Source: a virus | Taxonomy: Duplodnaviria > Heunggongvirae > Uroviricota > Caudoviricetes | Reading direction: 5' to 3' (one strand) | IMG/VR virus record: IMGVR_UViG_2554235189_000017 | Location: 1 to 38,614 of that record | Length of the DNA: 38,614 nt | Shown: in pieces, positions 19,815 to 24,573 of the stretch | How the letters are laid out: the number at the start of each line of letters is the position of its first letter | Numbering within the stretch: position 1 is the first letter of the stretch | Made by a program: the position numbers and the translations under genes | The notes under the pieces: generated by a model | Told to the model about the DNA's origin: nothing | What the model saw: only the letters and a program-made list of their open reading frames with translations | Database searches by the model: none

Positions 19815-20111
19815 TCACTCCTGTTCACTGGCCTCTTTGGCCATCTTCAAATACTGTTCAGGGCAATGCGCCATAACGCGCTGAAACAGTTCCAGCGCCA
19901 GATTGCGTTGCCCCTCATTAAATGCCATTGCCATAGCGTCCATCGGTGAGATAGCGGAAAACACACGGCCTTTCTCCAGCACCGACCAGACAACGCGACG
20001 CCCCTGTTCACTGCTCATGACAAAGCGAATGTCATCAATTTCACGCTGCGCCATGTCACGTTGCTTACGGGCGTTTTCTTCTTTCAGTTGATCGTCTTCG
20101 TAATCTGTCAT
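19815..20111 (-). CDS. Small head-assembly-associated protein (98 aa)
   Basis: Overlaps the portal stop (ATGA); charged helical protein. Confidence 0.45.
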   Translation of the reverse strand: MTDYEDDQLKEENARKQRDMAQREIDDIRFVMSSEQGRRVVWSVLEKGRVFSAISPMDAMAMAFNEGQRNLALELFQRVMAHCPEQYLKMAKEASEQE

Positions 20112-21787
20112 TGTGATTGCCCACCCTGACCACTAACTGCATTCGCCATAGCTGACAAAACACTCGGATCCGAAGTTTTAGCTTCGCTTAGCGTCTTGGC
20201 ACCCTGTGCCGCCGCCATCCCCATCGCCATCATTTGTTGCTGCTGTTGCTGCTGTGCCCGTTGCTGGCGAGCCTGCTCAACCTGTTCCTGCGGAACAATG
20301 ACGGTTGGAGACACTCCGGACATATCAGCGAATGCATCGATCGCCTGATCAACGTTGAGTTTGTCGAGAGCTTCTGGTTTCGCTTGCGCAAGTTGACCAA
20401 TGAAGTTAACCGTGGACGCCAGACTGGACAGGCCGATAGACTTCTGCGCCTGAGCCATGACGGAAATGTATTCGACCTTCAGTGGCATGCCTTCCATCGC
20501 GTCAGGCGGTGGCGGCAGCATGTTTTTGCGCACCATCATCGAGAAAGAGCGGTCAATGAGAGGATTAAGACATTCGTCGTTCAGACGCTCCAGAACCGGC
20601 CCCAACATCAGAAGTTTTTCTTCTTTCATTTCGATCACCGCTTCAACAGGCATCGAGCGGGTATTGATGTTCTGCAACATCATGAACAGATCGACAAAGT
20701 AGGCGCTGTTAATGATTTGACGAGTGTCCTGAATGTCTGCCACCAAATCTGCTGTACTGGGGTTAACCAGATAAGCAGGCCTGAAGCCATCCTGACCAGT
20801 AATCTGATCGATATACGTGATGTCGCCAGGAAGAAGGGAGGCGCGCTGATTCTTGAGGGAAGTCGGAGCAACCATCGGCGGATTGGTGGCTTTATCAATC
20901 AACTGCGACTTGCGCTTCTGGAGAAGCTGCAATGCCTTAACAGGTCCAAGCGCCAGCATACCCGGGCATGATGATCCATAAACATCTTCGCCATTAACTT
21001 CCCAGCGCGGAGCCATAATTGGAAACTCATCGAATCCGGACTCACGCAACAACTTGTCGTTATCGCCACCAACCTCGTAATAAACCGATTTGAATGGCTT
21101 GTTCTTGCTATCCAGCTTCGATGTATCGCGGTCAATGTTCGGGTAAACCGAATGCATCACTTCGATCCACTTCTCGTAGGTGCCGCTTTCCCACATGCTT
21201 TTTACGGATTCGCTGACGTTATTTAGCCCGAACTCCTGAACAAGCTGACGAACAGTCATAGAGAACTTGCGAAAACAGGTGTCAACACTGCCACGAGGTG
21301 AGTTAGCCAGGTAGTAACTGCCTATCGGGAATGGCATTGTGCGAATGATGTCCTCGTCATCCTCCAGCACTGCCATTGCACCAGTGCTGTATGTGCCGAG
21401 GCTTCCGTATAACTGCGGCAGCGACTGATAGAGATTCGACTTATTGAACATATCGTTCATGCGGTTCTGCACCGCCTCAAGCCACAACTTAACAGGGCCA
21501 TAATCCATCATTTCAGGATCTGGCGTAGCCAGGCGAAACCACGGACGCGCGGGGCTTGTGATGCCTGACATCATGCCGCTGGCGAGAGTGCGCGCCGCCA
21601 TAGTCCCGGTCGAATCAATAATGCGTGTATTGCGTCGATCGTTACGGTTGACCTCAGAAGTCAGAAAGCGGGAACCACGCGGGTTGATGTAATCACTCAA
21701 CTCGCGCCAGTGCGGCTCGAACGACTGACGCTCGCTTTCAAGTTGTGCGAACTGTTTGTTCAATCGCTCTTTAGTTGTTTCCGCCAT
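20108..21787 (-). CDS. Portal protein (head-to-tail connector, podovirus type)
   Basis: 559 aa immediately downstream of the terminase region. Confidence 0.75.
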   Translation of the reverse strand: MAETTKERLNKQFAQLESERQSFEPHWRELSDYINPRGSRFLTSEVNRNDRRNTRIIDSTGTMAARTLASGMMSGITSPARPWFRLATPDPEMMDYGPVKLWLEAVQNRMNDMFNKSNLYQSLPQLYGSLGTYSTGAMAVLEDDEDIIRTMPFPIGSYYLANSPRGSVDTCFRKFSMTVRQLVQEFGLNNVSESVKSMWESGTYEKWIEVMHSVYPNIDRDTSKLDSKNKPFKSVYYEVGGDNDKLLRESGFDEFPIMAPRWEVNGEDVYGSSCPGMLALGPVKALQLLQKRKSQLIDKATNPPMVAPTSLKNQRASLLPGDITYIDQITGQDGFRPAYLVNPSTADLVADIQDTRQIINSAYFVDLFMMLQNINTRSMPVEAVIEMKEEKLLMLGPVLERLNDECLNPLIDRSFSMMVRKNMLPPPPDAMEGMPLKVEYISVMAQAQKSIGLSSLASTVNFIGQLAQAKPEALDKLNVDQAIDAFADMSGVSPTVIVPQEQVEQARQQRAQQQQQQQMMAMGMAAAQGAKTLSEAKTSDPSVLSAMANAVSGQGGQSQ

Positions 21788-21801
21788 TTCAATGACTCCG
21801 G

Positions 21802-22008
21802 TTACTGACCAAGCAGCGTTTTACCGCTGGTATTAGCGGTTGATGTGTCACCCTGAGAACCGGTAAGCAGCGTAGAACTACGACCAGCAGCAGCGCGACG
21901 GCGACGTGTTTCTTCGTCGCGGGCATCAACAACGGCGGCATCCTGCTCCTGTGGTGCTGCCTGAACTTCTGGTGTTGCAGGCACTGATGGTGAGCTACCC
22001 ATGCACAT
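21802..22008 (-). CDS. Possible small protein upstream of portal (68 aa, low complexity)
   Basis: Ends 14 nt before the portal ATG with GGAG between; could be non-coding. Confidence 0.25.
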   Translation of the reverse strand: MCMGSSPSVPATPEVQAAPQEQDAAVVDARDEETRRRRAAAGRSSTLLTGSQGDTSTANTSGKTLLGQ

Positions 22009-22098
22009 ATCAATGACTCCGTACGCAATTAAATTATTACCAATTTAACCACATATGATTTACTTATCGTAGGTAGTTGACATTTAACGCATAAATTA

Positions 22099-22113
22099 TT
22101 ACCTTTAAGGTAA
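22099..22113. promoter_or_regulatory. Operator-like perfect palindrome TTACCTTTAAGGTAA next to a TTGACA hexamer (22072-22077)
   Basis: 15-bp perfect palindrome, part of the dispersed motif family. Confidence 0.5.
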
Positions 22114-22435
22114 GTAAAGGGTTCATTCCGGTTATTAACCTGACTGGCTTGTCGTTAAATTGAACAGGTGGAGTGAGCTTTTATTTTGAGCAGTACGGCG
22201 TATGGCACATGCGCCGATAGCGGTATAGATACGTTTAATGGGCACCCTCCCTTGCTCGGGCAAACGAACCAGGTAGCCGGAATGTGCAAGTCGAGCGGTT
22301 TTATTCCGCGCACGGGGATTCACCATCCCGGCGATTCGGTGTGACGCCTCGGAAGAGACGAGGGTACAACGATGAGAGCATTTATGGAGCCGCGACAAAG
22401 TGTGGTGCCTTAACAGGCTAAGTGCTCTCAGCGTT

Positions 22436-22512
22436 GTGGCATTAGCTCAGTTGGACAGAGCAACCGCCTTCTAAGCGGTTGGTCGCAGGTTCGAATCCTG
22501 CATGCCACGCCA
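22436..22512 (+). tRNA. tRNA-Arg (anticodon UCU), phage-encoded
   Basis: Hand-folded cloverleaf: acceptor GTGGCAT/ATGCCAC, D-arm GCTC...GAGC, anticodon loop CTTCTAA, T-arm GCAGG-TTCGAAT-CCTGC, encoded CCA. Confidence 0.85.
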
Positions 22513-22556
22513 GAATCACGCCTAAGGACCGTGATGCCAGAAGTTCCAGGTGCTTG

Positions 22557-22598
22557 GCGGTGATGGTTTCCCTTGAAGGACTATCACCGCCCTTTTTA
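22557..22598 (+). terminator. Rho-independent terminator downstream of tRNA
   Basis: GGCGGTGAT...ATCACCGCC stem then CTTTTTA. Confidence 0.6.
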
Positions 22599-22674
22599 CA
22601 GCAGGACGCCATTGCGATGACTTCATGCTGTAAACCAGTACAGCCACGGAAGGCATAACTCATTGCTTCCAGTT

Positions 22675-22698
22675 CGCCCGGTTCGCCGGGCATTTTTT
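22675..22698 (+). terminator. Rho-independent terminator/attenuator 12 nt upstream of the DUF2829-like gene
   Basis: GCCCGG-TTCG-CCGGGC hairpin followed by ATTTTTTT, then AAGGTGAG RBS and ATG 22711. Confidence 0.7.
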
Positions 22699-22710
22699 TA
22701 AGGTGAGATT

Positions 22711-23007
22711 ATGAGCGAAACATCAACAGTATCTTTCTCCACTGCTTTGTCATCACTCAAAGATGGTAAGCGCATTGCACGTGCCGGATGGAATGGCAAA
22801 GGCATGTATCTGCAACTGGTTAAGCCACCGCAATCGGCCACTCCGAACGATTGGCGATTTGACGTTACATGCGGTGACGAGTATACATTTGTACCTGGCG
22901 TTAAACTTCTACCGTGGATTGGGATGAAAACTGCTGACGGTTGCTTTGTACCGTGGCTGGCATCTCAAACCGATATGCTATCTGATGACTGGATTGTAAT
23001 TCAATAA
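22711..23007 (+). CDS. DUF2829-like small protein (98 aa), candidate Tad2-type anti-Thoeris sponge
   Basis: ARAGWNGKGMYLQL near N-terminus and WLASQTDMLSDDW near C-terminus match my recollection of DUF2829; opposite strand to flanking late genes. Confidence 0.5.
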   Translation: MSETSTVSFSTALSSLKDGKRIARAGWNGKGMYLQLVKPPQSATPNDWRFDVTCGDEYTFVPGVKLLPWIGMKTADGCFVPWLASQTDMLSDDWIVIQ

Positions 23008-23011
23008 CACC

Positions 23012-23023
23012 GTGACATGTCAC
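23012..23023. repeat. 12-bp perfect palindrome GTGACATGTCAC (copy 2 of 3)
   Basis: Exact copy 5 nt after the stop of the DUF2829-like gene. Confidence 0.8.
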
Positions 23024-23026
23024 AAA

Positions 23027-23055
23027 CAGCCAGCCTATGAGCTGGCTTTGTTTTA
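23027..23055 (+). terminator. Rho-independent terminator after the DUF2829-like gene
   Basis: CAGCCAGC-loop-GCTGGCT stem followed by TTGTTTTA. Confidence 0.6.
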
Positions 23056-23097
23056 TCCTCACCAGAGGATATCAACGACATTATCCCCACCAGCGGA

Positions 23098-24573
23098 TTA
23101 AGCATAGGGATCGTAATCTGTAATGGCCTTGCCTTGCTGGTTCTGCTGCCCGGGAATTCGCAGACGCTTAGACACAGGGAACGCAAACGTCAGCAGTAGC
23201 GCATCGCCTTTACCCGGCGAACGCCCAAGCCGCTCCTTGATATCTTCCTTCGGTTCGATAACGATTTTACCGTCCACGCGAACTTTGTACTCTGCCGCCG
23301 ACAGATCGTCCGCTGTTTCCTGGTCATCCAGCATCCCGCCCAACCTCAGCCATGTCTTGCATGAGTTGAACATCTCCCCGCGCTTGTTGAGCATCTGAGG
23401 GTCAGTTGACGCACCACCGAACGGAACAAGTTGCCATGTGCGCCCCCAGCCGTCACCGATTGACTTCAGACCGGTTCCGTAACCGAAGTCGATGAACACC
23501 GCGTCAGCCTGATACTGGTCTTCAAAGTCAGCGATACGCTTCGCCATAATCAGATCGTCGGTAGTCTTGTTGCCAGTCCACAGCACCTTACTGTGTAGCC
23601 CCTGCCGCAGGTATATCACCGCGTCATCAACGCCTGAATATGCCGGGTCAACACCGATTATCACCGGAGCATGCGCCACCTGCGCAGCGGTTACCACCCG
23701 TTTCATTGCCTCATCAGTAAGACCGGTAGGGATAAACTGCAATTCAGATGCATCAGGGAATATGCCGCGCACACGGATTTTAACGAAGTCGCTGTCTTCC
23801 CCGTAGTCATCAACCCATTTCTGCAACTGCTGTTTGTTAGTGCCTTCCACCGTTCGGCTGTCAATCTGCGCAGTTTTCCAGCGGTGTTTATATTTGCGGA
23901 AACATTCGCGGAAACGTCCGGTATTACGCGTCGGGTTTCCGAACGCCACCCAGATAATCTCAGTGTCTTCGTCCGTTAGTGCACCCTCGGCAACTTCCCA
24001 CACCAGATCCGCAATGTTCGACGCTTCATCGAATACCACGATGATGCGTTTGCGCTCGTTGTGTAGTCCGGCGAATGCCTCAGTGTTGTGCTCAGACCAG
24101 GGGATTGCGTCAGCTCGCCACCGCTTGTCGTGTCCAGGATCATTGCTGTACATCGCGGTAGCGGTACAGGTAAACCAGTCTTTCGTGATAGCAAGGTTCG
24201 ACCACTTGATAATTTCCGGCCAGGTCTTCGTTCGTAGCTGGTTGTCGGTGTTGGCGGTCACCACGACCTTACAATCCTCGCAAGTGGACATGCCCCAGTT
24301 GATCAGCATTGAGATGAATGCGGATTTACCAATACCGTGACCCGAAGCGCGTGCCAGCATAAGCGGCTGATAGCGAGTCTCTGGATTCTGCAGGTGATCA
24401 CGTATCTCTCGGAACGCATCAGCCTGCCACTGACGTGGACCGGTGGCATGTGCCAGTTCAGTCCCATCTTCCCCCCACGGGAACGCATAGAGGGCATAGC
24501 CAAGCGGATCGTGAGTGAACCCTGCAATATCCTCGATCAACTGCTCTTCAGGAGATAACGCTGCATCTGTCAC
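23098..24573 (-). CDS. terL: Terminase large subunit
   Basis: 491 aa with ATPase-like N-terminal region (GHGIGKS) and nuclease-like C-terminal region; ATGA overlap with terS. Confidence 0.8.
   Translation of the reverse strand: MTDAALSPEEQLIEDIAGFTHDPLGYALYAFPWGEDGTELAHATGPRQWQADAFREIRDHLQNPETRYQPLMLARASGHGIGKSAFISMLINWGMSTCEDCKVVVTANTDNQLRTKTWPEIIKWSNLAITKDWFTCTATAMYSNDPGHDKRWRADAIPWSEHNTEAFAGLHNERKRIIVVFDEASNIADLVWEVAEGALTDEDTEIIWVAFGNPTRNTGRFRECFRKYKHRWKTAQIDSRTVEGTNKQQLQKWVDDYGEDSDFVKIRVRGIFPDASELQFIPTGLTDEAMKRVVTAAQVAHAPVIIGVDPAYSGVDDAVIYLRQGLHSKVLWTGNKTTDDLIMAKRIADFEDQYQADAVFIDFGYGTGLKSIGDGWGRTWQLVPFGGASTDPQMLNKRGEMFNSCKTWLRLGGMLDDQETADDLSAAEYKVRVDGKIVIEPKEDIKERLGRSPGKGDALLLTFAFPVSKRLRIPGQQNQQGKAITDYDPYA

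Follow-up and report, generated by a model that had tools for sequence, protein, structure and literature searches.

A stand-alone Tad2-family gene in an exchange slot of phiV10-like prophages, a candidate anti-Thoeris nucleotide sponge

Tad2 proteins, like those of the Acb4 family, are small homotetrameric sponges for immune nucleotides (PMC11722364). The family's founding member, SPO1 Tad2 (gp34.65; PDB 8SME/8SMF/8SMG), holds 1''-3' glycocyclic ADP-ribose (gcADPR) by means of W25, N26, W73 and D79 (10.1101/2023.05.01.538930). In HgmTad2 (the metagenomic AcrIIA7; PDB 8KBI-8KBM, 8WJC) gcADPR is contacted by W21, N22, G23, M76, A78, T82, V84, W87, L88, S90, T92 and D93, and binding is lost in the W21A/N22A and S90A/T92A/D93A mutants; a second pocket of this protein binds cGG and cGAMP, with R31, S47, F70 and N85 each being required (10.1101/2023.11.15.567273). 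In a survey of 2025 that covered 18 Tad2 homologues, members were found with activity against CBASS, Pycsar, or type I, II or IV Thoeris, and a single homologue often inhibited several of these systems (PMC12393519), so homology to Tad2 does not by itself fix the ligand. Here we describe the gene for a 98-aa Tad2-family protein in IMG/VR virus record IMGVR_UViG_2554235189_000017 (38,614 nucleotides, analyzed over its whole length and called the window below), a phiV10/epsilon15-like temperate podovirus element of the genus Uetakevirus that is an E. coli prophage. The reading that we prefer, and to which we assign a probability of about three in four, is that this protein is a stand-alone Tad2-family sponge, carried as anti-Thoeris, gcADPR-binding cargo in a slot of phiV10-like prophages.

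The open reading frame (ORF) begins with an ATG at 22711 and ends with a stop codon at 23005-23007 on the + strand, just where the initial annotation of this DNA had placed a 98-aa protein with the motifs GWNGKG (residues 26-31) and WLASQTDMLSDDW (residues 82-94). That annotation had proposed membership of the DUF2829/Tad2 family, and a profile search agrees: PF11195 (Tad2-like, formerly DUF2829) matches with 86.8 bits, where the gathering score is 25 bits (E=1.4e-24), over profile positions 2-73 of 73. When sequences of solved structures were searched, the real matches were Tad2 proteins only (E 1e-15 to 6e-12), namely HgmTad2/AcrIIA7 (8kbi, E=1.1e-15), SPO1 Tad2 (8sme, E=4.6e-12), pdAcrIIA7 (9kzr), ModTad2 (9eib, 8v3e) and SptTad2 (8wjd). 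No NCBIfam model fits the 98-aa protein or either of the two slot-mates described below, and a PHROGs search of the 98-aa protein returned only families 1048 and 872, both of unknown function.

A Tad2 fold, which the initial annotation had also put forward, is predicted for the protein as well. The AlphaFold2 monomer model, built from 116 homologues (predicted local distance difference test score, pLDDT, 88.4; predicted template modelling score, pTM, 0.79), contains the features of this fold, which are an N-terminal helix, an antiparallel beta-sheet, and an insertion after beta2 and before the following core strand. In a Foldseek comparison with the PDB, it gave 24 significant matches, all of them to Tad2 structures (E 2.8e-7 to 2e-5, probability 1.00, template modelling (TM) score up to 0.85), and the next match was at E ~1; the top match is SPO1 Tad2 (E=2.8e-7, TM 0.70-0.85). 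The family is large, with 7,289 homologues at E<=1e-5, and the exact 98-aa sequence is already found in NCBI on 18 contigs, labelled "DUF2829 domain-containing protein", its 90% cluster being present on several hundred contigs. Strong purifying selection acts on the gene: the ratio of nonsynonymous to synonymous substitution rates (dN/dS) comes to 0.05 when it is compared with P0002, a relative of 91% identity that occupies the same slot in another Uetakevirus-like prophage, and to 0.14 when it is compared with a relative of 77% identity from an SU10-like Lelliottia phage, in which the relative lies within the structural module. Given the Pfam match, the number of homologues and these two ratios, the Tad2 gene is not a chance ORF.

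To map the residues of the ligand pocket, the sequences of solved Tad2 proteins were recovered from the search alignments and then aligned to the 98-aa protein. All four SPO1 contacts are kept, as W27, N28, W82 and D88, and the HgmTad2 gcADPR contacts map to W27, N28, G29, M72, T74, C78, V80, W82, L83, S85, T87 and D88, with 10 of the 12 being identical. The nine-residue motif WLASQTDML is the same in both proteins, and among the 116 aligned homologues each pocket position either does not vary or is conserved to at least 96%. The 98-aa protein is a genuine member of the Tad2 family, and since its canonical gcADPR pocket is intact, it most likely serves as an anti-Thoeris sponge. The residues that HgmTad2 requires for binding cyclic dinucleotides are not conserved, however: R31 is replaced by K38 and F70 by L66, S47 falls within an 11-residue deletion, and N85 is deleted. 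Dual sponges of the HgmTad2 type combine an insertion of 35-41 residues with all four of these residues, a combination that the 98-aa protein does not have. An HgmTad2-type cyclic-dinucleotide site was therefore rejected on residue mapping, and the dual Thoeris/CBASS activity of HgmTad2 would not be expected, because R31, S47, F70 and N85 are not conserved. Since the pocket residues are kept while the cyclic-dinucleotide residues are not, the best-supported reading is that of a gcADPR sponge of the SPO1/HgmTad2 canonical-pocket type, lacking the HgmTad2 cyclic-dinucleotide site.

The comparison with solved relatives can be extended to the rest of the domain. HgmTad2, the best sequence match among solved structures, resembles the 98-aa protein in that both are stand-alone domains of about 100 aa with a common fold and identical GWNGKG and WLASQTDML motifs, whereas overall identity is only 42% and the insertion between beta2 and beta5 has 41 residues in HgmTad2 as opposed to 30. 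SPO1 Tad2 is 40% identical to the 98-aa protein and has a shorter insertion of 24 residues, in which stacking by F44 closes a second pocket; the hosts also differ, SPO1 being a lytic Bacillus myovirus and the 98-aa gene belonging to a temperate E. coli podovirus-type prophage. ModTad2, from a Myroides odoratus prophage (PDB 9EIB, 8V3E), has the same fold and GWNGKG motif, but its pocket motif reads WTPSVSDIL in place of WLASQTDML.

The 98-aa protein consists of the sponge domain alone, plus the 30-residue insertion at residues 39-68 (nt 22825-22914). Among enterobacterial relatives this insertion follows a mosaic pattern, being 87-97% identical in some proteins with a core that is merely 66-75% identical, and merely 30-50% identical in others with a core that is 80-89% identical. 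This contrast between insertion and core suggests that the insertion is a selected, exchangeable module in the enterobacterial clade. In other Tad2 proteins the same region builds a second ligand pocket (10.1101/2023.11.15.567273), and a second binding site specific to this clade would agree with the pattern.

The analogy with SPO1 Tad2 and HgmTad2 suggests that the 98-aa protein would form a homotetramer with two pockets between non-dimeric protomers, to which one chain would contribute W27/N28/G29 and another W82/L83/S85/T87/D88. These pockets would bind and sequester, without degrading it, an ADP-ribose-derived second messenger produced by Thoeris TIR (Toll/interleukin-1 receptor) proteins, the likeliest ligand being the 1''-3' (and 1''-2') gcADPR of type I Thoeris. 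With this signal sequestered, the ThsA effector would not be activated, and the phage would be predicted to escape abortive infection.

Genomic context adds to this picture. Apart from the Tad2 gene itself, the surrounding 1.5 kb shows 96-98% identity to phiV10 and its relatives. Also encoded in the window are an integrase, a G7C-type tailspike and a Bro-N protein. The Tad2 gene has the portal gene on one side and terL on the other, both on the strand opposite to its own, as the initial annotation had it. Alignment with phiV10 sets the limits of a slot, in that near-identical DNA on both sides encloses unrelated sequence. The left flank includes a tRNA-Arg gene, two upstream hairpins, a T7 tract and the Shine-Dalgarno (SD) sequence, and it continues as far as ATG AG; the right flank begins with CAA TAA, followed by a palindrome, GTGACATGTCAC, and a terminator. 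The SD, ATG AG and CAA TAA are common to the Tad2 allele and to the Acb4 allele of this slot.

These flanks are present in ~506 of 5,426 complete E. coli genomes, and their contents are polymorphic. At least 143 genomes have a phiV10-type Acb4-family gene (PF13876) between both flanks, 113 have a gene for a 140-aa phrog_4846 protein, three (ECSC054, PD23 and PF9285) have Tad2, and one has a near-empty slot that marks the boundaries. In Salmonella phage SPN1S the slot contains a 125-aa lipoprotein-like gene, so it is not reserved for sponges. The Tad2 gene is thus interchangeable cargo within a fixed slot of phiV10-like prophages. The slot gene of phiV10 itself, PhiV10p03 (123 aa), matches PF13876 at E=6.3e-35 and gives a weak direct match to SPO1 Acb4 (9e4w, E=0.011). 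PF13876, which includes N4 gp49 and Sf6 gp66, is the family of Acb4 anti-CBASS sponges (SPO1 Acb4, PDB 9E4W; PMC11722364). Acb4 is a functional analogue of Tad2 and not a homologue; in phiV10 and most phiV10-like prophages, the Acb4-family allele occupies the same slot with the same SD, first codon and terminator as the Tad2 allele. Acb4 and Tad2 domains are also frequently fused, and such a fusion from Pasteurella phage Pm86 blocks both type I Thoeris and CBASS (10.1101/2025.07.12.664507). The presence of an Acb4-family slot-mate in sister prophages therefore lends the sponge reading of the Tad2 gene independent support from genomic context.

Taken alone, the Tad2 gene adds one homologue to a family that counts thousands of members, and RefSeq already labels it DUF2829; the gain from its assignment is small, namely a specific candidate for anti-Thoeris activity in an E. 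coli prophage lineage that is common. Greater follow-up value attaches to the slot polymorphism, the phrog_4846 allele and a leader RNA that is described below. Two unrelated families of nucleotide sponges alternate in one sharply bounded slot, and the frequencies of its alleles could record which signalling defences phiV10-like prophages meet. The phrog_4846 family (for example, WP_021529117.1 at L005:712-1134 and WP_001600316.1 at L007:1612-2034) comprises 140-aa proteins in ~100 clusters, from Enterobacteriaceae only. Its protein has no match in Pfam, NCBIfam or PDB sequences, and an AlphaFold2 model (pLDDT 81.7) has no significant fold match in the PDB or BFVD. Because it occupies the sponge slot, it can be nominated, through guilt by slot, as a candidate counter-defence protein.

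The features of the locus are collected in Table 1. The scan for promoters and terminators covered 21700-23300, and it found four terminator-like sites (hairpin plus T-run) in 1.6 kb, as compared with 1.8 +/- 1.3 in shuffled sequence. The bracketing of the gene by intrinsic terminators that the initial annotation had described is seen on both sides, upstream at 22676-22691 and downstream at 23028-23047, the latter hairpin separating the cassette from the 3' end of terL. The hairpin at 22676-22691 ends 19 nt before the ATG and its T7 ends 11 nt before it; in SPN1S its pairing is kept through two compensatory changes (GG/CC to AC/GT). The more distant hairpin at 22556-22591 is largely kept in SPN1S, and the SD is identical in phiV10, the near-empty slot and SPN1S. 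The palindrome after the stop codon, also kept in phiV10 and the near-empty slot, might be a protein-binding or recombination site.

Table 1. Features of the Tad2 locus. Positions are those of the window unless preceded by an L number, which denotes a locus elsewhere.
Feature	Position	Strand	Basis or remark
Portal gene	20108-21787	-	identity via phiV10 and RefSeq annotation of near-identical DNA
Putative sigma-70 promoter TTGACA-17 nt-TACCTT	22077..22105	+	conserved in SPN1S; below default scan threshold
Conserved structured leader RNA	22195..22436 (core 22195-22363)	+	homologues, covariation, minimum free energy (MFE)
tRNA-Arg (anticodon UCU)	22436..22512	+	ARAGORN; Rfam tRNA 73 bits; upstream of sponge gene
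Terminator-like hairpin, 14 pairs (22556-22591), then T5	22556..22600	+	scan; 3' of tRNA-Arg
Terminator-like hairpin GCCCGG-UUCG-CCGGGC + T7	22676..22699 (hairpin 22676-22691)	+	scan; directly before SD
Shine-Dalgarno-like AAGGTGAG	22700..22707	+	3 nt before ATG, in left flank common to all slot alleles
Tad2-family coding sequence (PF11195/DUF2829)	22711..23007	+	98 aa; ORF, Pfam, PDB matches, AlphaFold2/Foldseek, dN/dS
Perfect 12-nt palindrome GTGACATGTCAC	23012..23023	.	directly after stop codon, start of right flank
Downstream terminator-like hairpin 23028-23047, then TTTGTTTTAT (T-rich)	23028..23056	+	scan; rho-independent terminator in phiV10 annotation
terL	23098-24573	-	identity via phiV10 and RefSeq annotation of near-identical DNA
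Slot boundaries	22700-23027		
Slot loci elsewhere	L001:2517-2888, L005:712-1134, L006:640-850, L007:1612-2034, L008:2245-2622		
Leader RNA copies elsewhere	L012:2501-2744, L013:1501-1740, L014:1501-1669, L015, L016, L017-L136		

Within the scanned region no promoter reached the threshold, and none was found between the upstream terminator and the ATG. The nearest candidate is the sigma-70-like site listed in Table 1: in SPN1S its TTGACA (22077-22082) and a ATATTACCTTT block containing the -10 element TACCTT (22100-22105) are conserved across a diverged spacer. The only candidate found by eye in 22592-22710, between the two terminators, was CATAAC, which was rejected because it is not conserved in SPN1S. 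An 83-aa ORF on the - strand (22442-22693), annotated in phiV10 as PhiV10p04, was likewise rejected, as a gene: it overlaps the tRNA-Arg on the opposite strand, has no Pfam match and was dropped by PGAP, so it is almost certainly not one. The initial annotation had spoken of a typical moron layout, and this holds in part, since the gene has a terminator on each side and is variably present among related phages; but no promoter stands immediately upstream of it, so the arrangement is not the classical one of promoter, gene and terminator. We infer instead that a + strand unit runs in the order promoter, leader RNA, tRNA-Arg(UCU), terminator, terminator, SD with cargo ORF, terminator. Transcription of the Tad2 gene would probably start at the sigma-70 promoter ~630 nt upstream and proceed through the leader RNA, the tRNA-Arg(UCU) and the two terminator hairpins, and it would be independent, presumably in timing as well, of the late operon, which runs antisense.

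Several observations weigh against the gcADPR-sponge reading. Two of the pocket positions differ from HgmTad2 (A78 is T74 and T82 is C78 in the 98-aa protein), and Tad2 homologues with an intact GWNG / W..S..D framework are known to differ in specificity (PMC12393519). ModTad2, for example, takes His-ADPR and cUMP as ligands and fails to block type I Thoeris, and Tad2_71 binds N7-cADPR as well (PMC12393519). To judge from its text, none of the five homologues that the 2023 preprint tested is enterobacterial, and no binding, oligomerization or phage-challenge data were found for the 98-aa protein or for relatives of more than 50% identity. In addition, two terminator-like hairpins precede the gene, which lacks a promoter of its own, so its expression may be low or conditional. 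It is possible, though unlikely, that the protein is a Tad2-fold sponge whose main or additional ligand is His-ADPR (of type II Thoeris), N7-cADPR (of type IV Thoeris), cUMP/cCMP (of Pycsar) or a CBASS cyclic dinucleotide; if the ligand is an additional one, a second pocket made by the 30-residue insertion at the dimer interface would hold it. The functional diversity of the family is wide, with some members having two distinct pockets (PMC12393519; 10.1101/2023.11.15.567273), and the mosaic insertion, if it is an exchangeable module under selection, would be consistent with this idea; the pocket motif, however, equals that of HgmTad2 and not that of ModTad2, and the four HgmTad2 residues for cGG/cGAMP are not conserved.

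Far less credible is a role like that proposed for AcrIIA7, in which a basic groove of the tetramer would bind structured RNA and so disturb an RNA-guided system, with no nucleotide being sequestered. Names and one recent report speak for it: the best PDB sequence matches are deposited as AcrIIA7 or 'Inhibitor of Type II CRISPR-Cas system', pipelines label the relatives in phages Huey and Louie 'anti-CRISPR protein', and a 2026 paper describes binding of the type II-A CRISPR-Cas9 tracrRNA by a head-less AcrIIA7 via K58, K66, K71, K93 and R101 (PMC13133391). Of these five residues in pdAcrIIA7 numbering, only K58 and K71 have counterparts in the 98-aa protein (K17 and K30), both of which are family-wide; K66 is A25, K93 lies in a deleted segment and R101 is F50, so AcrIIA7-type RNA binding was rejected on residue mapping. 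To our knowledge, E. coli lacks type II-A Cas9/tracrRNA systems, which also counts against this explanation. Li et al., moreover, failed to reproduce Cas9 inhibition by HgmTad2 either in vitro or in vivo (10.1101/2023.11.15.567273). It is also very unlikely that the gene is a passenger, an intact ORF that is effectively silent, insulated by terminators, antisense to the late operon and without a current role. The two upstream hairpins, the lack of a promoter between the terminator and the ATG, and the rarity of the Tad2 allele (3 of ~506 slots in complete E. coli genomes) would all agree with a passenger, but strong purifying selection, including the dN/dS of 0.05 against P0002 in the same slot elsewhere, the conserved SD and start codon, and the several hundred contigs in the 90% cluster would not. 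Furthermore, the arrangement is common to all slot alleles, so it must permit expression of the common Acb4-family allele too. On balance, the Tad2 interpretation of the initial annotation is supported, both the profile match and the predicted fold having come out in its favour.

Members of the same Tad2 clade are also found at other sites in enterobacterial phages. The closest phage homologues are those of the P22-like Lederbergvirus phages Huey (Huey_CDS0064) and IME10, at 76-77% identity, and Kapi1_043 is 45% identical; the Huey homologue shares the insertion module of the 98-aa protein. These P22-like homologues are two-domain proteins of 166-173 aa (166 aa in IME10 and Huey), and the 98-aa protein corresponds to their C-terminal domain alone. 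They are encoded just 3' of the lysis genes and on the same strand as their neighbours, whereas the 98-aa gene lies in another slot of another phage genus. Two-domain versions were located at P0005, L002:2288-2788 (Huey_CDS0064) and L003:2285-2806 (Kapi1_043), and stand-alone versions in the same P22-like slot, in the SU10-like structural module and in the Uetakevirus slot. The conserved N-terminal domain of the P22-like homologues, ~75 aa long (MPQHIGVKLINAF...GYVSWSPKEVFEKAY), has no Pfam match in the 166-aa proteins, even at E<=10, and could be another fused module, like those in Tad2-Acb4 and Tad2-Sequestin fusions. In an E. coli lysogen, no other prophage gene is reported to be expressed as highly as Kapi1_043, which was hypothesized to be Tad2-like (PMC12922286). 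On another Uetakevirus-like contig (L009:4434-4697), the slot contains two + strand genes, one for a Tad2 homologue of 91% identity and the other an 87-aa ORF; neither this gene nor an 83-aa gene in L010 has a family match.

The leader RNA is a separate and possibly more novel lead. It is a conserved non-coding element of ~240 nt between the promoter and the tRNA-Arg, in which a closing stem (22367-22380 / 22423-22436) encloses a variable loop. Its MFE z-score is -3.1, and the RNAalifold consensus of 56 non-redundant copies has 26 pairs with almost no non-pairs, 9 of the 26 showing compensatory changes on both sides. Homologues occur in 83 phage records, which include phiV10-like phages, mEp460/Ayreon/2H10, Stx2c and Stx2a phages, P1/P7/D6/SJ46/RCS47 (between trnI and ban), and phages of Enterobacter, Klebsiella and Stenotrophomonas, and an invariant 19-mer, GGTAGCCGGAATGTGCAAG, is present on at least 120 IMG/VR contigs. 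In Rfam 15 nothing matches the leader RNA, whether in its window copy or at four other loci, and none of the RNAs found in a literature search on put-like antitermination RNAs in prophages matches it. A promoter-like site, such as TTGACA-16-CATAAT in Stx2c-type phages or TTGACA-18-TACATT on two IMG/VR contigs (L046, L050), usually precedes the copies of the leader RNA by 50-95 nt, and in mEp460 and BUCT709 the leader lies just 3' of a CI-like repressor gene on the same strand.

A role of the leader RNA in cargo expression, perhaps through antitermination, or as a stable small RNA (sRNA), is speculation. A larger proposal, which we regard as doubtful, is that the region between tRNA-Arg and terL of Uetakevirus prophages is a dedicated anti-defence exchange cassette, its phrog_4846 allele included, with cargo expression dependent on the leader RNA (~170-240 nt). 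In such a cassette, the leader might let RNA polymerase pass both terminators by put-like processive antitermination or, alternatively, might be set free as a stable phage sRNA when RNase P cleaves at the tRNA (22435/22436); if the proposal were true, phrog_4846 would be a new counter-defence protein. The region 3' of the leader is itself variable, being occupied by tRNA-Arg(UCU) in 34 of 132 loci and elsewhere by ORFs, other RNA-like modules or a terminator. In Stenotrophomonas phage BUCT709, the module 3' of the leader core (L016:1131-1250) matches RprA at a sub-threshold 50 bits (E=4e-4; Rfam gathering score, 70 bits), which hints that some of these variable 3' modules may be sRNA-like.

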